From the NCBI GenBank assembly GCA_965248695.1, contig CBDFKD010000002.1:3872001-3936000 (forward strand): a stretch of 64,000 bases of DNA, read 5' to 3'. This DNA is from Acidobacteriota bacterium. Lineage in GTDB: Bacteria; Acidobacteriota; UBA890; WLXD01. Made by a program: the position numbers and the translations under genes. A model generated the notes under the pieces. That model saw nothing but the letters and a program-made list of their open reading frames with translations. It ran no database searches and had not been told where the DNA came from. This document shows positions 27,915 through 40,751 of the stretch, piece after piece (positions within the stretch are counted from its first letter, which is position 1; every line of letters begins with the position of its first letter).

Positions 27915-29279
27915 ATGAGCGCCGCTGACTTGTATCCGATCTGCCGACGGCAGTCTTTCGCGCTCGTCGGAGCGTTGCTGGGATTGCTGGTGGGGCCCGC
28001 CACGGCCGGCGCGCAGGGGCCGGTGGCTCTGGTCGCGGACCGGCTGATTGACGGCCGAGGCTCCGATGCCCGCACCGGAGTCGTGGTGGTGGTGGAAGGC
28101 GAACGGATCACTGCGGTCGGGGGCCGCGAGGTGATCCCCGCCGGTGCCCGCCTGTTGGAGCTGCCCGGCGCGACGCTCATGCCCGGGATGATCAACAATC
28201 ACGAGCATCCCCTGATGTATGGCGACGACTATCAGAACGCCCATCTGCAGGGCTCTTCGGCCTACAAGGCTCTGATGGGGCTGGCGGCGGTGCAGCGGTA
28301 TCTGCTGGCCGGCTGGACCGGCGTGCGGGTCATGGGCGACGCCGATGTCTTCTACGCCAATCAGGATCTCCGGCGGGCGATCGAAGAGGGGATCTTCATC
28401 GGACCTCGAATGGCCGGCGCCGGGCACTACATCTCGATCACCGGCGGAGGCGGCGACGTCAACTTCCTATCTCCCGAGCAGCCGGTAGTGGCCGATGGTC
28501 TGGTGGTCGACGGGCCCGAGGAGGTCCGCAAGGCGGTGCGGCGGGAAGTGAAGTACGGCTCGGACTGGATCAAGCTGCTCGTCACAGGCGCCTACCAGTC
28601 GGTCGGCGACGACCCGCGGAACGTCGCCTTCAGCCCTGAAGAGCTGCGCGCCGCGGTCCAGGAGGCGGGTCGGCTGGGCGTTCCGGTTGCCGCCCATGCG
28701 CACGCCACCGACGGCATCAAGCAGGCCGTACGCGCCGGTGTACGCTCGATCGAGCACGGCACGTTTCTCGACGACGAGGCGATCGCGCTCATGGTCGAGC
28801 GGGGCACCTTCCTGGTGCCGACGATCTACATTGGCGACTACTACGAGGGCACCGACCTGCTGCTGGCACAGGAGAAGAACGACCAATACACGGAGAACGA
28901 TCGCCCCGTATTTCTAGCCGCCCTTGGCCGGGCGCACGCGGCGGGTGTGAGGATCGCCGTTGGTATCGACCTCGGCGGCATCTCTGTTCCGGCGGAGGTT
29001 TTCGCCCGCGAGTTTGCCGTGCTGACCGAAGCGGGCCTCTCACCGATGGACGCGATTCAGGCCGGTACCCGCGTTGGCGCGGAGCTCCTGGGCTGGGACG
29101 ATCTCGGGACGATCGAGCCCGGCAAGCTCGCCGACATCATCGCCGTGCCGGGAAATCCACTCGACGACTTGAGCGCTCTGGAACGCGTATCTTTCGTTAT
29201 GCTGGGCGGCAGGGTGGTCAAGCGTCTGGATTCGTCGGCGTCGCTTGCCGGGATTCTGCCGGGGCGCGAAAGTCAGTAA
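27915..29279 (+). CDS. Secreted metal-dependent amidohydrolase (Xaa-Pro dipeptidase-like)
   Basis: PGMINNHEH, DWIK, AAHAH, SIEHG, GTIEPGKLADIIAV.GNPL. Confidence 0.88.
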   Translation: MSAADLYPICRRQSFALVGALLGLLVGPATAGAQGPVALVADRLIDGRGSDARTGVVVVVEGERITAVGGREVIPAGARLLELPGATLMPGMINNHEHPLMYGDDYQNAHLQGSSAYKALMGLAAVQRYLLAGWTGVRVMGDADVFYANQDLRRAIEEGIFIGPRMAGAGHYISITGGGGDVNFLSPEQPVVADGLVVDGPEEVRKAVRREVKYGSDWIKLLVTGAYQSVGDDPRNVAFSPEELRAAVQEAGRLGVPVAAHAHATDGIKQAVRAGVRSIEHGTFLDDEAIALMVERGTFLVPTIYIGDYYEGTDLLLAQEKNDQYTENDRPVFLAALGRAHAAGVRIAVGIDLGGISVPAEVFAREFAVLTEAGLSPMDAIQAGTRVGAELLGWDDLGTIEPGKLADIIAVPGNPLDDLSALERVSFVMLGGRVVKRLDSSASLAGILPGRESQ

Positions 29280-29978: not shown

Positions 29979-31478
29979 TCAATCCGCCAGCAAGCTCATT
30001 ACCCGGTTCCTGGATAGCAGCATCCCGACAGCCGCGATTGCGGTGGCCGCGGCGATGCCGAGATAGACGGCCAAGATGCCGAACGGCTCGGCGAGGGCTC
30101 CGATCTGCCCGGATACCCAGACGCCGACGCCGACGAACGCGATCCACACGCCCATCATCGTGCTCGAGAGCCTTTCCGGCGCCTCGCGGCTGACGAATCC
30201 CTGACCGGTCGGGAGCACAGCCATCTGTCCGAACGTGATTACCCAGTAGTAGGCCAGCGGCCAGAAGAGACTCGTCTTGACCGTGAGATCGCCTTCACGG
30301 GCTGGGAGTGTCATCGACATGATCAGAAACGCGGTCGATGTGAGGAAGAGCCCGATGGCGATCTTGGTCGGTGCGTCCAGCTTGCGACCGCGGCCCTCGA
30401 GGCGGCTCCATATGGCCAGCATGATCGGTCCGACGATGATCACGAAGAGTGCCTGTGCCGAGTGGATCCACAGCGTCGGGATCTCGAACCCGGCGATGAC
30501 ACGGTCGCTGGTGTTCTGCACGTACAGGCTGAACGAGCCGCCCCACTGCTCGAAGGCGGCGATGAATACGAAGTACGCCAGGCACAGCGAGCAGATTGCC
30601 GTGACTCGACGGCGCTCGCCGCGCGTGAGCGCAAATAGGGGTCGACCGCCGCCGGGCTGTCTCGAAGCTTCCGGAACCTTCGAGACCGGCAGCTGGACGC
30701 GGGTCAGCACAATCGCCGACAGGGCCATCATCACGCCCGTCGATGCCAGGCCCTCCACCCAGCCCATGCGGCTCGCGATGGTGCCGGAAATCAGTGCACC
30801 GATGATGAAGCCGAGCATGGCGGCCATGAACAACAGCGTGTATCCGCCCTCGCGCTTGGCGCTCGACCCCTCGTACAGAGGTCCGACCATCGCGGCCAGC
30901 GTCGGGACCTGGAGTCCGTACCCGATGATGAACACCAACAGGGAGCCATAGAACGCCAGCGTCATCGCTCCGTACGCAGCCTCGACGGCCGATTGCAGCG
31001 CGGCAGCGCCGGCGGCGCTGGTGGCCAGGCTGGCGACTGCCTCCGCGATGCGCCCGGACTGTGCCTCGTCGAGAGTCAGTCGCGCGATTGGAACCTCGGC
31101 GTCCAGCAGCACTTGCCGGACCGGCGCGTCGTAGAACGAGCCGACGAGCGCCGGGATCGTGCCGACGCCGGCAAGGACGAAGATGGGGACGGTCTGTAGC
31201 CACATGCCCAGGATCGCAGCCCGACGCTTGCCGATGAACGCGTCGGCGATCCAGCCGCCGATCAACGGCGAGGACTGGACCAGGCCGGTGAACAGCCCGT
31301 ACAGGCGTACGGCCTCGGCGCCGGTCCACCCATATCCGTAGTCTCGCGGCGTCGCGGTGATGAATAGCACCAGATGGCCGATCAAGCCGGCGTAGGCGGC
31401 GACATGCCACAGCGATACGTGCGCCAACGTGTAGATCTGGCGCGGATGATCGAAGAAACCGTCGGTACGCGGCATCAT
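29979..31478 (-). CDS. POT/PTR family proton-dependent oligopeptide transporter (copy 1)
   Basis: FFDHPR, GGWIADAFIGKRR, REGGYTLLFM, FEQWGG, TDR.IAGFEIP..W, APER. Confidence 0.85.
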   Translation of the reverse strand: MMPRTDGFFDHPRQIYTLAHVSLWHVAAYAGLIGHLVLFITATPRDYGYGWTGAEAVRLYGLFTGLVQSSPLIGGWIADAFIGKRRAAILGMWLQTVPIFVLAGVGTIPALVGSFYDAPVRQVLLDAEVPIARLTLDEAQSGRIAEAVASLATSAAGAAALQSAVEAAYGAMTLAFYGSLLVFIIGYGLQVPTLAAMVGPLYEGSSAKREGGYTLLFMAAMLGFIIGALISGTIASRMGWVEGLASTGVMMALSAIVLTRVQLPVSKVPEASRQPGGGRPLFALTRGERRRVTAICSLCLAYFVFIAAFEQWGGSFSLYVQNTSDRVIAGFEIPTLWIHSAQALFVIIVGPIMLAIWSRLEGRGRKLDAPTKIAIGLFLTSTAFLIMSMTLPAREGDLTVKTSLFWPLAYYWVITFGQMAVLPTGQGFVSREAPERLSSTMMGVWIAFVGVGVWVSGQIGALAEPFGILAVYLGIAAATAIAAVGMLLSRNRVMSLLAD

Positions 31479-31582
31479 TGCCCAGGCTAGCGGACAGGGC
31501 TTCAGAGCCGCGATACTGTGCCATGGAACTGGGTCCGAGTTGGCGAACACGACGAGGTACAACGTTGAGCAGGGAACGAGCA

Positions 31583-32923
31583 ATGGGGGTTCGAGCGGCG
31601 ATCCTGGTAGCCGGGCTCGCGCTCATGGGTGCGCATGTCGGACATCCCGCGACCGTGGCACCGACCGACTGGCCCCAGTGGCGCGGCCCCGCGGGCACGC
31701 GGGTCGCCGACGGGATCGCGCTACCGGTGTCCTGGAGTGATGACGAGAACGTCGCCTGGAAGGTGCCCCTGCGCGGCCTGGGGGTCTCCTCGCCGATCGT
31801 CTGGGGCGATCAGGTGTTCGTTACCTATCAGGTCGGGCGTGTACCGCGTCGGGGCGGCTCGCATCCGACGCTGTCACGGGGCGACGCCGGTAGCGGCGAC
31901 CTCTTGATGAGAGAAGCCTCGGGGGAAGTCGGTAGCCGTGTTTCCTTCGTCGTGGCGTCGTTCCATCGGCACGACGGGCGGCTGCTATGGGAGCGCCAGA
32001 TCGATGCCGGGGGGCGCCTGTTCCCAGTGCACGACAAGCACAACCTGGCGAGCCCTAGTCCGGTGACCGACGGTGAGCGCGTGTACGCCTGGTTCGGCAC
32101 CGGACAGATCGTTGCCTTGAGCATGAGCGGCGAGCAGGTCTGGCAGCGAGCCCTCGCCGAAGGTGGCGATAGCTTCAACATCGGCTGGGGGCACGCTAGC
32201 TCTCCGACGCTCTATGGCGACTCGCTCATCCTGCAGTGCGACCACGGTCCGAGCGCCTACCTGCTGTGGCTCGAGGCGCACACGGGCGAGGAGCAGCGTC
32301 GGGTGCGGCGTTCCTCATCGACCACGTCGTACAGCACGCCCTCCGTTGTCCCGGGGCCCGATGGCGACGAGCTCATCGTCAACGCCAGCCAGCGATTGGA
32401 AGCCTACGATCCGACCAGCGGCGAGCTGCTCTGGCACACGGGCGCCAACAACAGCTTTCCGATCGGCGTGCCGACATACGCCGACGGCGTCCTGTACACC
32501 AGCCGCGGCCACCGAAGCGGCCCCTATATGGCGATTCGGACGGGCGGCCGCGGCGATATCACCGACAGCCACGTGCTCTGGCGTGTTGCCACCGGGGCGC
32601 CGTATGTGTCGTCGGTGCTGCTGTACCGCGGACGTGTCTACATGTCGAACGGCAGCGGCATCGTCAGTGCCGTCGAGGCGGCAACCGGCGAGCGCATCTG
32701 GCAAGAGCGAGTCGGCGGGGTTTTCTCCGCCTCGCCGGTAGCGGGCGACGGCAAGGTATATTTCGTCAGTGAGGCGGGCGAGACGGTCGTGGTGGCCGCG
32801 GGCGAAGCTCCGCGCGTGCTGAGCCGAAATCCGCTCGACGCGCGCGTCATTGCGTCACCCGCGATCTCCAATGGCCAGATCTTCATTCGCGCCGACCGAC
32901 ACTTGATCGCGGTCGGCAACTGA
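31583..32923 (+). CDS. Secreted PQQ-binding-like beta-propeller repeat protein
   Basis: DWPQWRGP, NVAWK, SSPIVWGD, ASPSPVTDG, YSTP, SASPVAGDG. Confidence 0.85.
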   Translation: MGVRAAILVAGLALMGAHVGHPATVAPTDWPQWRGPAGTRVADGIALPVSWSDDENVAWKVPLRGLGVSSPIVWGDQVFVTYQVGRVPRRGGSHPTLSRGDAGSGDLLMREASGEVGSRVSFVVASFHRHDGRLLWERQIDAGGRLFPVHDKHNLASPSPVTDGERVYAWFGTGQIVALSMSGEQVWQRALAEGGDSFNIGWGHASSPTLYGDSLILQCDHGPSAYLLWLEAHTGEEQRRVRRSSSTTSYSTPSVVPGPDGDELIVNASQRLEAYDPTSGELLWHTGANNSFPIGVPTYADGVLYTSRGHRSGPYMAIRTGGRGDITDSHVLWRVATGAPYVSSVLLYRGRVYMSNGSGIVSAVEAATGERIWQERVGGVFSASPVAGDGKVYFVSEAGETVVVAAGEAPRVLSRNPLDARVIASPAISNGQIFIRADRHLIAVGN

Positions 32924-33451: not shown

Positions 33452-34639
33452 ATGAACGACCAGGACCGTGCCACCCGAGCCGACCCGCAGCACCTCGAAC
33501 CTGATATCAAGGTGATGGAATGGGGGTTCGCGCGCACGCCGTTCTTCCCGTGCACTTCCACCCCGGACACCGTCTACAGCGTCTACAGCGGCCGTCTCGC
33601 CATCGAGGCGATGGGCGACGATCCGGTAGCCAACTACTGGAAGCTACGGCGCGAGGCGGTGCTGTACGACGTGCCGGAGCACCCGATCGAGATTTCCGGG
33701 CCCGATGCAGAACGCCTGCTGAACCGGGTGTTCGTGCGCGATATTTCCAAGCTGAGGCCGGGACGCGCTAGCTACGGCATCGCCTGTTACCCCGATGGCG
33801 GCATCATGATGGACGGCGTGCTCATGCGACTCGCCGAGGATCGGTTCTGGTATGTCCTGGCGAACGGCGAGTTCTTCAGCTGGGTGATGGCACTTGGCCT
33901 CGAGATGGACGTGACCGTCAGCGACCCGGACTCGTGGGTGCTGCAGGTGCAGGGCCCGCGATCGCTCGAGGTGCTGGATACTGCGTGCGACGGTGGCGCG
34001 CCGGATCCATTCAAGTTCTTCGCCGTCACCGAGTGCACCATGGGCGGACAGCCGCTTTGGCTATCGCGCACTGGCTGGACGGGTGAGCTCGGCTGGGAGG
34101 TGTACACGATCGAGCCCGACGTCGATGGGCCGGCTTTGTGGAACCACATCCTCGAGGCCGGCAAGTCGTTCGACATGGTCGGTACGGCAATGGACTCGAT
34201 GGAGAGCCGCCGCATCGAGGCCGGCATTCTCAGCAACGGCAACGACATGACCCCGGCGCACAACCCGTTCCAGGCCGGCCTCGGCAAGTTCGTCGATATG
34301 GATAAGGAAGACTTCATCGGCAAGCAGGCGCTCGAGACTGCCGATCGAGGCTTGTTGCTCTATGGCATCAAGAGCTTGCAGGCAGCACCCTCCGGGGAGA
34401 TGGCGGTCGAGGGTCGGCGGGTCGGTCGGGTAATGGTCGGTGCCTGGTCGCCCTATCTGCAGCACGGCATAGGCTTCGCGATGTTCGACGAGCCGGGGGA
34501 ATGGCCTGGCACACAGGTCGAGGTGCAGGATCCGCAGGGCGCTTTCCAGGTCGGGGAGATCGTCATGCTGCCGTTCTATGACGCCGACAAGCAGATCCCG
34601 CGCGGTCTCGACCGGAGTATTCCGGAGGTACCGAGCTAG
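33452..34639 (+). CDS. GcvT/DmdA-like aminomethyltransferase (THF-dependent demethylase)
   Basis: YWKLR.EAVLYDVPE.PIEISGPDA, LQVQGP, SRTGWTGELGWE, RRIEAG, LPFYD. Confidence 0.88.
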   Translation: MNDQDRATRADPQHLEPDIKVMEWGFARTPFFPCTSTPDTVYSVYSGRLAIEAMGDDPVANYWKLRREAVLYDVPEHPIEISGPDAERLLNRVFVRDISKLRPGRASYGIACYPDGGIMMDGVLMRLAEDRFWYVLANGEFFSWVMALGLEMDVTVSDPDSWVLQVQGPRSLEVLDTACDGGAPDPFKFFAVTECTMGGQPLWLSRTGWTGELGWEVYTIEPDVDGPALWNHILEAGKSFDMVGTAMDSMESRRIEAGILSNGNDMTPAHNPFQAGLGKFVDMDKEDFIGKQALETADRGLLLYGIKSLQAAPSGEMAVEGRRVGRVMVGAWSPYLQHGIGFAMFDEPGEWPGTQVEVQDPQGAFQVGEIVMLPFYDADKQIPRGLDRSIPEVPS

Positions 34640-36144
34640 TCGGGTTCCACCCCCTCGTCCAGCAGTGCCATCAGGGGTTTCTTGACGGCGAACATCGCCA
34701 CCGCAACGAGTCCGCAGCCGACGGCGATCCCGCCGAACACCGCCAGTTCCCCGATCGATTGCGCCAACGCTCCCACCTGACCCGAGAGCCAGATCCCGAT
34801 CCCGCCGAGAAGCAGCCAGAGACCCATCATCGTGCCTGCCAGCCGCTCCGGTGCCTCGGCGCTGATGAACCCCAGCCCGATCGGAATGACCGCCAGCTGC
34901 CCGACGGTGACGATCCAGTAGTAGATCAGGGGCCAGAACAGATGCGTCTGCGTGCCAGGATTCAGTGCATGCTGAGACGCGGCGAAGGCCATACAGACGA
35001 AAGCGAGCGCGGTCATCAGCATTCCGATGGCCATCTTGCTCGGCGCCGAAACAGCTCCCCGTCGGTTCGAGGCCAGCTTCCACGTCCAGATCATGACCGG
35101 CCCCAACAGGATCACGAACAGCGACTGGGCGGAGTGGATCCACAGGGTCGGAACCTCGAACCCCCCAACCGTGCGGTCGGTCTTGTTTTCGACATAGAGG
35201 CTGAACAAGCCGCCCCATTGATCGAAGGCCACGAGGAAGAACAGGTAGCACATCGACAGCACCGCGATCGCGAGCACGCGATTCCGCTCAGGAGGCGTGA
35301 GCGCGAGCGAAAACGACTTTCGTTCGGCGGTCTCCGTCAAGGCTGGCCCCCCGTTCGACTCGAACGAAGCAACCAGCCGTAGCAACGCGGCGAACGCGGC
35401 AGCGGCCATGAAGGCCGTCGACAGCAGGGCCGCTCGCCAGCCAAATCGGGTCAAGAGGCCGCCGGCGATGAGCGCGCCGACGATGAACCCGAGGTTGAGC
35501 GCCATGAAAAACAGCGTGTACCCGGTTTCTCGTCGCGCCGGCTCGTCGGCGTACAGTACGCCGACGAGTGCGTACAGGCTGGGCATCAGCAGGCTATAGC
35601 TCCAGGCGAACAGCGCGATGCTCAGATAGAACGCGACGGTTGTGAGTCGGTAGGCCCGCCGAACCGCAAGCCGCAACGTCTCGTTCGCTTCGGCGGCGCC
35701 CAGCACCCGCTCCAGTCGTGCGTCCTCCTCCGAGCCCAGGCTGATTCTTCCAAGCGATACGTCGGCCTCGATGAGCACCTCCCGAACCGGGGCGTCGTAT
35801 ACGAAGCCCACAAGCTCGGGAATCGAGCTCGCGGCGCTGAACAACAGGATGGCGATCGTTCCGCCGGCCAGTCCCAGAATCGCGGCCCGTCGTTTACCGG
35901 TGAAGACGTCCGCGACCCAGCCGCCGATCATCGGCGCCAGGTGCACCACACCGCCAAAAAGGCCGTAGAGGCGGATCGCTTCGGCGCCCGACCAACCGAA
36001 ACCGTAGTCAAGCGGCGGGGTGGTCAGGAACAGGACGAGGTGTCCGATGATGCCGGCGTAGGCCGCGACGTACCACAGAGCGATGAACGACAAGACGAAG
36101 AGGACGCGCGGGTGGCCATAGAAAACCGTCTTGTCAGCGGTCAC
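34636..36144 (-). CDS. POT/PTR family transporter (copy 2), coupled to the selenoprotein gene
   Basis: FYGHPR, GGWVADVFTGKRR, RETGYTLFFMALNLG, FDQWGG; its GTG shares base 36144 with the upstream TAG. Confidence 0.85.
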   Translation of the reverse strand: MTADKTVFYGHPRVLFVLSFIALWYVAAYAGIIGHLVLFLTTPPLDYGFGWSGAEAIRLYGLFGGVVHLAPMIGGWVADVFTGKRRAAILGLAGGTIAILLFSAASSIPELVGFVYDAPVREVLIEADVSLGRISLGSEEDARLERVLGAAEANETLRLAVRRAYRLTTVAFYLSIALFAWSYSLLMPSLYALVGVLYADEPARRETGYTLFFMALNLGFIVGALIAGGLLTRFGWRAALLSTAFMAAAAFAALLRLVASFESNGGPALTETAERKSFSLALTPPERNRVLAIAVLSMCYLFFLVAFDQWGGLFSLYVENKTDRTVGGFEVPTLWIHSAQSLFVILLGPVMIWTWKLASNRRGAVSAPSKMAIGMLMTALAFVCMAFAASQHALNPGTQTHLFWPLIYYWIVTVGQLAVIPIGLGFISAEAPERLAGTMMGLWLLLGGIGIWLSGQVGALAQSIGELAVFGGIAVGCGLVAVAMFAVKKPLMALLDEGVEPD

Positions 36145-37061
36145 TAACCGGAGGCCTGACCCGTTGACCCCGGCGTCTCACCGACGCACACGGCGCACGA
36201 CGGGTCGTTGGACTCGGCGAGAGCGCGATCTTCCTCGCTCTGGTACTGCGGGGTGTCGTGGCGTGGCAACCGCTGGTCGGCGCCGCGCTCGGCGGTTTCC
36301 TTCCACGCCTCGTCGTCGGTCCACTTGAACGGCAGCGTGACCGTGCCCGGTTCGCTCAGCGCCGTCAGGCCGGCGAGCGCGCTGGTGAGGATCTCGCGTT
36401 GCAGCTCCGGCTCACCCGGTTTTCCGGCGGTGTGCCCGAGTGGGTAGTCGAGGAAGGCGATGCGTGGCGGCCTGGTGGCCTGGATGATGTCGAGCGCGCT
36501 CGCCATGCACAGCGTGGAGATCCCGGCCGCCTCGATCTCCCGTGCGATCAGTCCGACGGACTGATGGCAAACCGGTCAGACGGGCACCAGCAGCGCCACG
36601 TCGACCTGGTTGGCGACGAGGCGCCGGGCCAGTTCGGGCGCGACCTCATCGCGTGCCCTTCGTGACGAGTAGATGCCGCCCATGAAGGTGTACGCGTTGT
36701 CGGCCAGCGCGCCGACAACGCCGTCCTCCACCAACCCTCGTAGCGTATCGATCGGGAAGACCACGTTCGGATCACGGCGCGCCGGGTCGAGATCGTAGGA
36801 AAAGTGTGTGGCGCGGAGATCCGCCGTGTCGACGTCCGTCGGAATCGTGCGGAACGAGACGTCGTCCTTGTAGTGGAAGGCGCGCTGGCCGGCAATGTAG
36901 ACGCCGCCGGAGGCGATCAATCCGAGGCGGCACTCCGACAGCGGCTTCTCGAGCGGTTGCCAGGGTGGAGGGTCTTCGACGCGGGTCCACTCGTAGATGC
37001 CGTAGCCGAGGGCAGCGTATTTCTCCCCGATGCGTGTTATGTACTCGATCGGCTCACTCAT
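36144..37061 (-). CDS. Selenoprotein, glycine/sarcosine/betaine/D-proline reductase B family (PrdB-like), 305 aa with Sec at TGA 36578-36576
   Basis: Track ORFs 36576..37325 and 36144..36506 are in one frame; read-through gives LLVPV-U-PVCHQSVGLIAREIEAAGISTL; family motifs KPLSECRLGLIASGG, D.SFR.IP, DPNVVFPID, PPR...YPLG; SECIS-like hairpin follows the TGA. Confidence 0.88.
36543..36569 (-). promoter_or_regulatory. Bacterial SECIS-like stem-loop
   Basis: mRNA reads UGA ccgguu UGC c AUCAGUCC GUC GGACUGAU c GCA: perfect 8-bp stem plus 3-bp lower stem; the loop begins with G, 18 nt after the UGA. Confidence 0.78.
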
Positions 37062-37149
37062 CCGCGCGGCTCCAAGGCGGAGGACCGAAGCGTCACATGA
37101 AACGCGCCGCAAACCCCGCCGGTCGACGACTGCCCAGCGAGCGTATCGC

Positions 37150-38976
37150 ATGAAGCGCGTGAGAGGGGCAGTGTTGTTTGTCGCCACATTGGTGTTGTGC
37201 CCGAGCCACGGCCTGGCATCGTCGCCGGCGGTGACCGCGAGATCATCGGCACAGCGACACTCCGTGGTGGTCGCCAGGAACGTCGAGGCGGCGATGCGGG
37301 ATGGCACCGTACTGCGCGCCGACATCTACCGTCCCGATGCGCCGGGACGATTCCCGGCGCTGTTGCGCCGTACGCCGTACTCCAAGAACAGCGACGGATC
37401 GGCAGCGCGCTTTCGGCGGTTGAGTACGCACGGTTATGTCGTTGTGGTGCAGGATACCCGGGGTCGCTACGCCTCGGACGGAGTCGCGGTGCCGCACGAC
37501 GAGGCGACGGATGGTTACGACAGCATCGAATGGGTGGCGGCGTTGCCGTACGTCGACGGCAAGGTCGGCATGTACGGTGGCAGCTACCTGGCGACGACCC
37601 AGCTGATGGCCGCATCGCTGGCGCCGCCACACCTGACCGCGATCGCGCCGAGCTCGTCGTACTCGAGCCGCCACGACATGGTCTTTCAGGGTGGCGCCTT
37701 CTACCTGTCGGACGGGATGTACTGGAACCTGGGGCAAGCGGCGGACGTCCGTCGCCGGGCGGCCGGCGCGTCGTTCGAGGATCGCGACGGTCCGATCGGA
37801 TTGACCGGCGAAGAGCGTCGCAAGGTGCGCGAGGAGCTCCTCTGGCAGGTACCGCTGGCGTCGATGGGGGCGCTGGGCATCAAGGATCTCGCGCCCGGCT
37901 ATTTCCAGATGCTCGCTCACCCGAGCTACGACACGTTCTGGGAAACCTACGACATCGCCCGTCGCCATGGCAGCTTCGAGACTCCGGCCCTGCATGTTAC
38001 CGGCTGGTACGACACCCTGCTGCGCGGGACGCTGGAGAACTTCAGTGGGTTGCGTGCCAACGCCCGGACTCTGCGGGCCCGGGACGGTCAGCGGCTCGTG
38101 GTTGGCCCCTGGACCCATTCGGGGCCGACAATCGAGAGCACCAGCATCGGCGAGGTCGAGTTCGGTCCGGACGCCGGGATCGACTATGAGCAGCTGCTGC
38201 TGCGCTGGTACGACCATTGGCTCCGCGACGGTGATGCATCGGTTGTGGACGCGGCGCCGGTACGCATCTTCGTGATGGGGACCAATCGCTGGCGCGACGA
38301 AGCCGAATGGCCGCTGTCGCGGGCACGACCAGCGCGCTACTATCTTCACAGCGGCGGCGATGCGGCCGAGCGCGCTGATGACGGAGTGTTGAGCACCGAA
38401 CCCCCGGCTGAGGAGCCTCCGGATCGGTATGTCTACGATCCCTCCGATCCGGTGCCCACCGGTGCCGCCGGCGGATATTCGCGCGCGCCGGCGGACGCCT
38501 CGGCGATCGAGACGCGACCCGACGTGCTCGTATACACCAGCGCCGCGCTCGAACAGGATCTCGAGGTGACCGGCTATATCGAGCTTGTGCTCTGGATATC
38601 GTCATCGGCGCCGGATACCGACTTCACTGGCAAGCTCATCGACGTGGCCCCCGATGGGACCGCGCGGACGCTCACCGACGGTATCGCCCGGGCTCGTTAT
38701 CGCGATGGCAAGACGAGCCCGGAGCTGCTCTCGCCGGGCGTACCGGCGCGGCTGGCTATCGACCTGCTTGCCACCAGCAACGTTTTTCTCCGCGGCCACC
38801 GGATCCGGCTGGAGATCTCCAGCAGCAACTTTCCGCGATTCGATCGCAACCCCAATACCGGTGCTCCGTTTGGCACCGACGGCGAGTTGCGAAGCGCGAC
38901 GCAGAGCGTTTTTCACGATAGACAGCGAGCGTCCTACCTGCAGCTGCCGGTAGTGCCTAGCGACGAGTCCGGCTAG
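37150..38976 (+). CDS. Secreted CocE/NonD family hydrolase
   Basis: Signal peptide from ATG 37150; MRDGTVLRADIYRP, RTPY, QDTRGRYASDG, GMYGGSY, GWYD, GPWTH, SSSNFPRFDRNPNTG. Confidence 0.92.
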   Translation: MKRVRGAVLFVATLVLCPSHGLASSPAVTARSSAQRHSVVVARNVEAAMRDGTVLRADIYRPDAPGRFPALLRRTPYSKNSDGSAARFRRLSTHGYVVVVQDTRGRYASDGVAVPHDEATDGYDSIEWVAALPYVDGKVGMYGGSYLATTQLMAASLAPPHLTAIAPSSSYSSRHDMVFQGGAFYLSDGMYWNLGQAADVRRRAAGASFEDRDGPIGLTGEERRKVREELLWQVPLASMGALGIKDLAPGYFQMLAHPSYDTFWETYDIARRHGSFETPALHVTGWYDTLLRGTLENFSGLRANARTLRARDGQRLVVGPWTHSGPTIESTSIGEVEFGPDAGIDYEQLLLRWYDHWLRDGDASVVDAAPVRIFVMGTNRWRDEAEWPLSRARPARYYLHSGGDAAERADDGVLSTEPPAEEPPDRYVYDPSDPVPTGAAGGYSRAPADASAIETRPDVLVYTSAALEQDLEVTGYIELVLWISSSAPDTDFTGKLIDVAPDGTARTLTDGIARARYRDGKTSPELLSPGVPARLAIDLLATSNVFLRGHRIRLEISSSNFPRFDRNPNTGAPFGTDGELRSATQSVFHDRQRASYLQLPVVPSDESG

Positions 38977-39022: not shown

Positions 39023-40751
39023 ATGACAAGCCAGATGAGGCGGGGCGGAGGGCACGGCGTTCGAGGGTTCGCGTTGCTTGGGGTCGTGCTTGCCGCGGTC
39101 ATGGGTGCCGGCCCAGCTCAGACGTACGACGTCATCGTCCGCAACGGCCGTGTCCTGGACGGTTCCGGCAACCCCTTCTTCTATGCTGACGTCGGCATCC
39201 GCGGCGACGAGATCGTCGCGCTCGGTGACCTCGAAGGGGCGACCGCCGCGCGCGTCGTCGATGCCAGCGGCCACTATGTGACGCCTGGGTTCATCGGCCT
39301 TCACGAACACGTCGACAACGACATTCTCGCCGGCGCCAACCGGGTGACCAACTAACACGACGCAGGGCTTTACCACCCTGGTGATCAACGCCGACGGTCT
39401 GTTCGGCGGCATCTGGCCGCTGCGCGAGCAGCGTGAAGCGTTCGAGCGCATCGGCCATGCGCCCAATCTGGTGCCGCTCGTGGGACACGGTGTGGTGCGT
39501 CGTCTGGTGATGGGCGAGGAGCCCCACGAGGTGATGCGTCATGCCACGGGCGATGAGCTCGAGCGCATGCGGGCGCTGGTTCGCGAGGGGATGGAAGATG
39601 GCGCCTTCGGGCTGAGCACGGGGCTGGAGTACAACCCGATGCGCTACAGCTCCGAGGAGGAGCTGCAGGAGTTGGCCAAGGTGGTTGCCGAGTACGGCGG
39701 CCATTTCCAGGCCCACATGCGCAGCCAGGGGCGCTATTCGAAGTGGCTGCTGCCGAGCCACATGGATCACCCGACCCAGCGCCACGTCGACTGGCTCGAC
39801 GCCATCATGGAGGTTATCAACGTCGGTCGCGTGGCCGGCCTCCCGGTCATGCTCGACCACATCCACCCGAAGGGCCCGCGCGAGTGGGGTCTCAGCAAGG
39901 CGACGACGCAGCTGATCGACGGGGCATGGCAGGCCGGCCATCCGGTCTATATCAACATGCATTCCTACGAGGGCTACTCCGCCTATGTGACGCTGGTGCC
40001 ACGCTGGGCGCTGGCGCGCGAAGAGGTACCGGGGCAGAGCGCCTCCGACGATTTCCCGCCCGTGGACTACACCGACATGCTCGGCAACCTGCAGGAGCGG
40101 CTGCTCGACCCCGAGCTGAGAGAGATGATCCGCGCCGATGCCGAGTACGAGGCTATCCGGCAGGGCGGCGCCGACAACCTGATCATCGTCGACTTTCCCG
40201 ACGCGAGCTTCGTTGGCAAGACACTCGCCGAGGTTGTGGAGGAGCGCGGCGGCGACTTCTTCGAGACCGTCATCTGGCTGCAGATGAACGGTCTGGATCA
40301 GCCGGGCGGCGTGCTGTGGATGGCCAAGGCCGTCGGCATGATCGACATCGAGGAATGGATGCGGCAGGACTACACCGCCGTGTCACTCGACCGCGGCTCC
40401 GACGATGGCAGCCGCACCAGCAAGTCCACCCATCCGGGCGAGTACGGTACCTCGGGGCGCCTGTTGCGAGAGTTCGTGTTCAATCGAGGCACCATCACGC
40501 TGCCGCACGCCATCCGCTCGATGACCGGGCTCTCGGCTCAGATTCTCCGGCTCAGCGATCGAGGCCGCATCGCGGTGGGTCAGAAGGCAGACGTCGTGGT
40601 GTTCGATCCCGAGACGGTGCGCAGCGATGCCACCTACCTGAACCCCTACGTCTATCAGCAGGGCATGAGCTGGGTCTTGGTAAACGGCAGCTTCGTGGTC
40701 GATGAAGGTGAGCCAACCGTGGAGCTGCCGGGAGCGGTGCTCGAGCGATAG
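39023..40751 (+). pseudogene. Secreted N-acyl-D-amino-acid deacylase family protein with a +1 frameshift at 39354 (pseudogene or read error)
   Basis: YDVIVRNGRVLDGSG, PGFIGLHEH, then AAC TA(A)C ACG ACG CAG restores NYTTQGFTT; GAFGLSTGLEY, HP..YGT, DRGRIAVGQKADVVVFDP. Confidence 0.85.

Follow-up and report, generated by a model that had tools for sequence, protein, structure and literature searches.

Is a gene that appears in two pieces at a TGA codon a single selenoprotein gene, and if so, what can a PrdB-like reductase subunit do in a genome in which its partner subunits are not found? The question is raised by a locus in a 64,000-nucleotide stretch of the genome of an Acidobacteriota bacterium (GenBank assembly GCA_965248695.1, contig CBDFKD010000002.1, positions 3,872,001 to 3,936,000 of the forward strand), here called the window and numbered from its first letter. 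An earlier note, made from the letters alone, had pointed to two open reading frames (ORFs) that share a frame and are separated by one TGA, and had proposed a hidden selenoprotein. Translation bears this out: the minus strand from 37061 to 36144 reads as one 305-codon frame with a single in-frame TGA, which is taken as selenocysteine (Sec, U). The start ATG lies at 37061..37059 and the stop TAG at 36146..36144, and the TGA is codon 162, at 36578..36576, in the context ...DVALLVPV-U-PVC-HQSVGLIA. Under translation table 11 the gene breaks into ORFs 36576..37325 and 36144..36506, both in the same frame; as gene callers split the gene at the TGA, correct annotation requires read-through. The start assigned to the selenoprotein agrees with that of the closest homologue, MSEPIEYITRIGEKY, and the PrdB-like gene, with its one internal TGA, is present as a single copy in the genome. 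We consider it very probable, on the evidence set out below, that this is a genuine Sec gene belonging to a known family of PrdB-like proteins that lack partners.

The first line of evidence is the column of codon 162 in other species. A search of 5.8 billion proteins returned 430 matches, and a scan of one genome per species yielded 560 confirmed relatives, of which the best 80, all from other species, were the loci analysed (L024-L103). In 78 of these 80 loci the column is occupied by TGA, and in the other two by TGC. Database homologues covering more than 90% of the query, which are about 290-315 residues long (one has 347), carry Cys at the column (CPVCHQ), apart from two with Thr. Many other database entries are 167-173 residues long, are 60-82% identical and terminate exactly at ...LLVPV; judged by that endpoint, they are Sec forms truncated by gene callers. 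The earlier note had asked for just this comparison, and the column indeed holds Cys or Sec, and neither Trp nor Arg, in the database homologues and in the 80 loci. Moreover, conservation of the protein persists past the TGA: an alignment of 94 sequences has 17 invariant columns after residue 162, namely P163, C165, H166, Q167, A173, R174, G180, A189, P198, P199, R200, G209, G213, W247, W253, R267 and D278. Among 41 genomes, the window's own and 40 relatives, 19 gave matches, and all 25 matches contain exactly one TGA; orthologues at 81-94% identity occur in three of the four congeners, each with one TGA. Assembled contigs tell the same story. One spans the whole stretch with no differences and may be the source assembly; another, from a different study, spans it with 50 differences, of which none is listed at 36576..36578 and the nearest, at 36570, 36573 and 36555, are synonymous third positions.

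The second line of evidence is a selenocysteine insertion sequence (SECIS) immediately after the UGA. The hairpin AUCAGUCC-GUC-GGACUGAU, at 36565..36547, has a perfect 8-bp stem and the loop GUC; the stem starts 11 nt and the loop 19 nt after the UGA, and the distance of 18 nt given in the earlier note for this stem with its G-first loop counts the bases that separate the UGA from the loop. The usual bacterial SECIS has an apical loop containing G and U at about 16-37 nt from the UGA, as in the description used by bSECISearch. On its own, a 76-nt stretch folds unremarkably (z = -1.05, and 28 of 200 shuffles are at least as stable), and at such a z the single-sequence fold proves nothing. We therefore rely on an alignment of 66 nt around the TGA in the window and the 78 TGA loci, 79 sequences in all, of which 75 are distinct. 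Of the 750 cells that the 10-pair helix occupies in this alignment, 99.5% are paired, and every slid register has at most 44.4% of its cells paired. Three pairs are altered on both sides (28 cells), U-A to C-G in 23 sequences, G-C to A-U in 3 and U-A to A-U in 2, and none of 500 shuffles reaches the observed covariation score. Thus the 3' hairpin is conserved with covariation, although the lone fold was uninformative. Several of these double changes alter neither of the two amino acids (CAG/CAA with CUG/UUG), and one pairs a silent change of a His codon (CAU/CAC) with an Ile/Val codon (AUC/GUC). To judge from the aligned codons, RNA pairing here dictates an amino-acid choice, between Ile and Val, and the substitution pattern is the signature of RNA constraint laid over a coding sequence. 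The loop is GUN in all Sec forms compared, with the G and the U conserved; the two Cys-form loci are without the hairpin and read HQATAIVA or HQAAAIVA. The SECIS overlaps codons 166-172, and because it overlaps coding sequence the segment HQSVGL(I/V)A is nearly frozen in Sec forms. A search of 36300..36800 against Rfam, with an E-value threshold, returned two chance-level matches and no SECIS family.

The genome (5.89 Mb in two contigs, 96.4% complete) also encodes the machinery that reading UGA as Sec would use. Genes for SelA (521.8 bits), SelD (319.1 bits) and SelB (330.4 bits, or 354.3 with its C-terminal piece) all score above their curated cut-offs, and ARAGORN calls a tRNA-SeC with the anticodon tca, so that each of selA, selB, selD and tRNA-Sec, the check that the earlier note had proposed, is found. 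Together, the TGA/Cys column, the SECIS and the sel genes lead us to infer that UGA 162 would be decoded as Sec: SelB with Sec-tRNA(Sec), bound to the hairpin 11 nt downstream, would insert the residue. As a separate observation, the selD match (G000:C2:1557914-1558828, L003) covers about 305 residues inside an open frame of 794, and its SelD may, from the length of that frame, be fused to another domain.

Relatives of the gene were found in Acidobacteriota, Binatia, Entotheonella, Chloroflexi, Gammaproteobacteria and other groups. The same phylum holds a second, shorter PrdB-like class, 36-46% identical and matching only about residues 21-250, with one TGA per gene; it was seen in the relatives G008, G009, G011, G013, G014, G018, G021, G023, G024, G026, G031 and G040, and some genomes hold two or three copies. 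The contigs in runs X1 and X5 reach a summed depth of about 450-500 at window positions 36547-36577, up from about 4-8, over the UxxC/SECIS stretch alone, which is where many other organisms of those metagenomes have contigs that align. This suggests that PrdB-like relatives are common in the X1 and X5 samples.

What kind of protein does the gene encode? The Pfam GRDB model (PF07355) matches at 41.2 bits, against a cut-off of 22, and ends just before the Sec. Among the NCBIfam models the PrdB equivalog TIGR04483 scores highest, at 172.2 bits over model positions 14-235 of 238; its equivalog cut-off of 300 bits is not reached. The GrdB, GrdF and GrdH models score 56-63 bits, each below its own cut-off, as with the TIGR01918 subfamily at 56.7 bits against 65.45. 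By these profile scores the protein is a member of the PrdB/GrdB superfamily and is not a GrdB. Compared with PrdB it has about 27 extra N-terminal and about 55 extra C-terminal residues, and the C-terminal extension carries a conserved W..WK...D.R..R..TPQYQxEEDR block. Other invariant polar residues lie away from the redox motif: Y55, Q59, H63, D67, H86, a MGGIYS block, R134 and R200. An AlphaFold2 model built with 94 sequences has a predicted local distance difference test score (pLDDT) of 92.6, a predicted template modelling score (pTM) of 0.92 and a Rossmann-like alpha/beta fold. Here U162-P-V-C165 comes after strand 155-159, where helix 163-178 begins. As modelled, this placement of Sec162-x-x-Cys165 is the usual geometry of a redox CxxC. 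A search of the PDB by sequence gave no match at E <= 1. Near the end of the protein, in the tail that PrdB lacks, stands a second pair of cysteines, C289-A-V-C292. Of 78 Sec forms, 64 have such a CxxC in their last 45 residues; of 16 Cys forms, none does. The motif could be a built-in relay dithiol. The text of the selenoprotein surveys consulted for comparison, as far as it was available, does not mention this C-terminal CxxC.

The partners were not found. PF09338 (GrdE/PrdA), PF04723 (GrdA) and TIGR04480 (PrdA) have no match in the 96.4%-complete genome, so that the remark of the earlier note that the window holds no PrdA, GrdE or GrdA extends to the genome, though the same searches matched in 0 of 14 control genomes; for PrdC (TIGR04481) the best score is 43.6 bits against a cut-off of 490. 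With no PrdA/GrdE, Schiff-base activation of an amino acid is unavailable, and with no pyruvoyl subunit found the substrate is probably not D-proline. The 64 kb was also said to contain no thioredoxin gene, and there is no PF00085 match inside the window; thioredoxins are encoded elsewhere in the genome. Finally, the organism had been taken for a respiring heterotroph rather than a Stickland fermenter, and the haem-copper oxidase subunit I present in the genome fits a respiring organism.

The genes around the locus look like a peptide-utilisation neighbourhood. Immediately downstream is a POT/PTR2-family peptide transporter whose GTG start overlaps the TAG stop of the selenoprotein gene by one base (TAGTG). 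Divergent upstream is an S15 X-Pro dipeptidyl peptidase, and a GCV_T protein, a second POT transporter and amidohydrolases are nearby; the neighbour set whose coordinates are given in Table 1 comprises two POT transporters, one S15 X-Pro dipeptidyl peptidase and two amidohydrolases. When the neighbours of the window were compared by tblastn with the 80 loci, L024, the closest locus, alone gave matches to the S15 peptidase, the GCV_T protein and the amidohydrolase, and neither POT transporter was found in any of the 80 loci, L024 included. As none of the 80 loci has it, the pairing with the transporter is specific to this lineage. We also tallied Pfam families among the immediate neighbours across the loci, after filtering neighbour ORFs by their GC content at third codon positions (GC3), since antisense ORFs are found in GC-rich DNA. 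The largest tallies upstream were PNTB (6 of 67) and acyl-CoA dehydrogenase (5 of 67), and downstream Peptidase_M17 (3 of 62); with top tallies of this size, a conserved partner gene was rejected.

How might the protein work? It probably runs a selenol/thiol redox cycle at U-x-x-C on some substrate. From the chemistry of its homologues PrdB and GrdB, the Sec162 selenolate would attack the substrate, Cys165 would resolve the adduct to leave a selenenylsulfide, and a dithiol would restore the selenol, a part that thioredoxin or the protein's own C289-x-x-C292 could play. We regard the chances of the cycle as written, from selenolate attack through resolution by Cys165 to re-reduction by a dithiol, as about evenly balanced, and the place of the C-terminal CxxC within it is one that we infer. 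As substrate one may think of a compound that reacts without activation of a carbonyl, or more simply of a disulfide or a peroxide. It is reasonable to suppose that the reaction is a Sec-dependent one different from those of PrdB and GrdB, as the earlier note had thought.

The strongest alternative is that the protein is a general thiol/selenol oxidoreductase, acting in defence against disulfides, peroxides or sulfoxides, and not an enzyme of carbon-heteroatom cleavage. The modelled position of UxxC at a helix N-terminus is the classical redox-motif geometry, the further CxxC in the tail is reminiscent of resolving or relay cysteines, and the surveys, in the portions available, place PrdB among thiol-dependent redox selenoproteins. 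Against this, no peroxiredoxin or thioredoxin is among the 25 families listed (of 69 upstream and 76 downstream) beside 81 loci, the many invariant polar residues off the motif suggest a specific small-molecule pocket, and the sole characterised relatives cleave C-N bonds. We hold such a role to be unlikely, though still a serious contender. A bolder proposal takes the PrdA-less clade to be a self-contained selenoenzyme, one that would cleave a carbon-heteroatom bond without a pyruvoyl partner, would be recycled by its C-terminal CxxC relay and would form one operon with the peptide transporter in this lineage. One example of such chemistry would be a small carboxylate that loses a good leaving group to direct displacement by the selenolate, and the mobile CxxC relay, which is found in Sec forms but in no Cys form examined, would supply the recycling. 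This proposal strikes us as distinctly doubtful.

Could the protein be a true D-proline reductase B subunit after all, with a PrdA-type pyruvoyl subunit whose gene lies at another place or has diverged beyond recognition? The top NCBIfam hit is indeed to the PrdB equivalog, along 222 of its 238 positions and with UxxC, and an X-Pro dipeptidyl peptidase adjoins the gene, which together with the translationally coupled peptide transporter could supply proline. However, 172.2 bits is far under the equivalog cut-off, neither TIGR04480 nor PF09338 matches in the genome and PrdC falls far below its own threshold. Moreover, of the 80 loci only L024 also has the peptidase and none has the transporter, PrdB lacks the C-terminal extension of about 55 residues, and the organism has a haem-copper oxidase. 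We think this very improbable. The view that the locus is a pseudogene or a sequencing error, or a pair of separate genes in one frame by chance, to which the two table 11 ORFs and an ATG at 36506 that could begin the second lend some colour, has next to no chance of being right, since the TGA stands at the same column in nearly all the species-level loci and in every match of the relatives search, the stretch from the TGA to that ATG is conserved as protein and continuous in Cys forms, and contigs from two studies concur on the TGA; the column, conservation, relatives and contig evidence therefore excludes a pseudogene or sequencing error.

Several observations weigh against our preferred reading, a genuine Sec gene of a known PrdB-like family without partners, and against what we build on it. 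The sensitivity of the PrdA/GrdE and GrdA searches is unvalidated, given their failure to match in any of the control genomes. A Foldseek search of the PDB with the model gave no match at E <= 0.001, and the best VIA-align result has Z 8.1 (root-mean-square deviation 6.6, 142 aligned) in a flat list of LacI/SDR-type folds. These we rejected as relatives, the list being flat and the arrangement generic; with only a generic LacI/SDR-type resemblance, no substrate can be read from the fold. The association of the CxxC tail with Sec forms may be only a marker of clade, as the Cys forms are more distant and form a separate clade. The Pfam tallies reveal no recurrent neighbour across the family's loci that would point to a pathway. 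Lastly, one RNA run (X13) yielded three short pieces, all less than 90% alike, which is evidence in neither direction.

Table 1. Features of the selenoprotein locus and its surroundings, in window coordinates
Feature	Position	Strand	Remarks
Complete PrdB-like selenoprotein gene	36144..37061	-	305 codons plus TAG, one in-frame TGA
GGAG, ribosome-binding-site-like motif, 8 nt upstream of ATG	37070..37073	-	read from sequence
UGA codon 162, read as selenocysteine	36576..36578	-	78/80 loci TGA, 2 TGC
U-P-V-C redox motif, Sec162...Cys165	36567..36578	-	junction of strand 155-159 and helix 163-178
SECIS element	36544..36568	-	8-bp stem 36565..36558 with 36554..36547, loop GUC 36557..36555
SECIS lower part: two further pairs across 1x1 internal loop	within 36544..36568	-	
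C-terminal C289-A-V-C292 motif, in tail absent from PrdB	36186..36197	-	model confidence 81 falling to 63
POT/PTR2-family peptide transporter, downstream	34636..36144	-	Pfam PF00854, 108.3 bits
Neighbour set	29979-31583 (-), 34636-36144 (-), 37030-38976 (+), 27915-29279 (+), 39381-40751 (+)		

Is such a stand-alone PrdB-like selenoprotein new? The earlier note had presented it as unusual and here overrated its novelty, for the family has been catalogued since 2005, as the available parts of three surveys attest. The Sargasso Sea survey counted 42 Sec sequences of a "proline reductase PrdB" with UXXC, which ranked third in abundance among the selenoprotein families there (Zhang, Fomenko & Gladyshev 2005, PMC1088965). 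In the Global Ocean Sampling (GOS) survey, PrdB (pfam07355, UxxC) accounts for 235 selenoproteins and 110 Cys homologues (Zhang & Gladyshev 2008, PMC2398784), and a genome survey reported "proline reductase" in Anaeromyxobacter and Geobacter, non-Stickland bacteria (Zhang et al. 2006, PMC1794560). Later reviews, in the parts accessible, retain the "PrdB" label (PMC5029168, PMC9312934, PMC13188914). For PrdB and GrdB, the chemistry proposed is that the selenolate attacks and a thiol then resolves the adduct to a selenenylsulfide (PMC10298544). In the portions of this literature that were available we found no discussion of the missing PrdA, of a stand-alone PrdB-like selenoprotein or of an assigned reaction. 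The gene is therefore a further member of a known family, and specialists would find it no surprise; the label "proline reductase" probably misleads in genomes that lack PrdA. Judging by the same excerpts, the family is among the commonest selenoproteins of ocean surveys and is spread over many phyla, and its biochemical assignment would fill a long-standing gap. The window contributes one more member, useful for annotation, with no decisive clue to the substrate.

How, then, does the locus compare with known systems? Its SECIS is like the fdhF-type bacterial element in being a hairpin within coding sequence, with a GUN loop, 18 nt from UGA to loop and stem-preserving covariation; unlike that element, it has a loop of only 3 nt and an upper stem without a bulged U, and it has no Rfam match. 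With GrdB, GrdF and GrdH (TIGR01917, TIGR01918, NF040794, NF040795) the protein shares the UxxC motif, and the C-terminal half of the GrdB proteins, which have about 430 residues, aligns with its residues 76-237. In contrast to GrdB, it lacks the N-terminal half, it falls below every cut-off and its genome has no GrdA/GrdE match. A GrdB-like operon for fluoroacetate described in Synergistota is not stand-alone, and hence was set aside as no parallel. The likeness to PrdB of Clostridium sticklandii and Clostridioides difficile (Kabisch et al. 1999, as cited in the parts available of PMC10298544 and PMC13188914) is closer, with homology over the whole length and Sec in UxxC. It differs from PrdB in reaching 172 bits of the 300 set for TIGR04483, in a genome with no PrdA and a PrdC match only far below the cut-off, in the extra termini with their TPQYQxEEDR block and CxxC tail, and in its host, an aerobe to judge from the haem-copper oxidase. 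The closest counterpart is the "proline reductase PrdB" family of the surveys, as far as their available text describes it, with PF07355, UxxC, both Sec and Cys forms and an occurrence outside Stickland fermenters. Nothing essential separates our gene from that family, and that the clade is the same is judged from the domain, the motif and the range of hosts that the two have in common.

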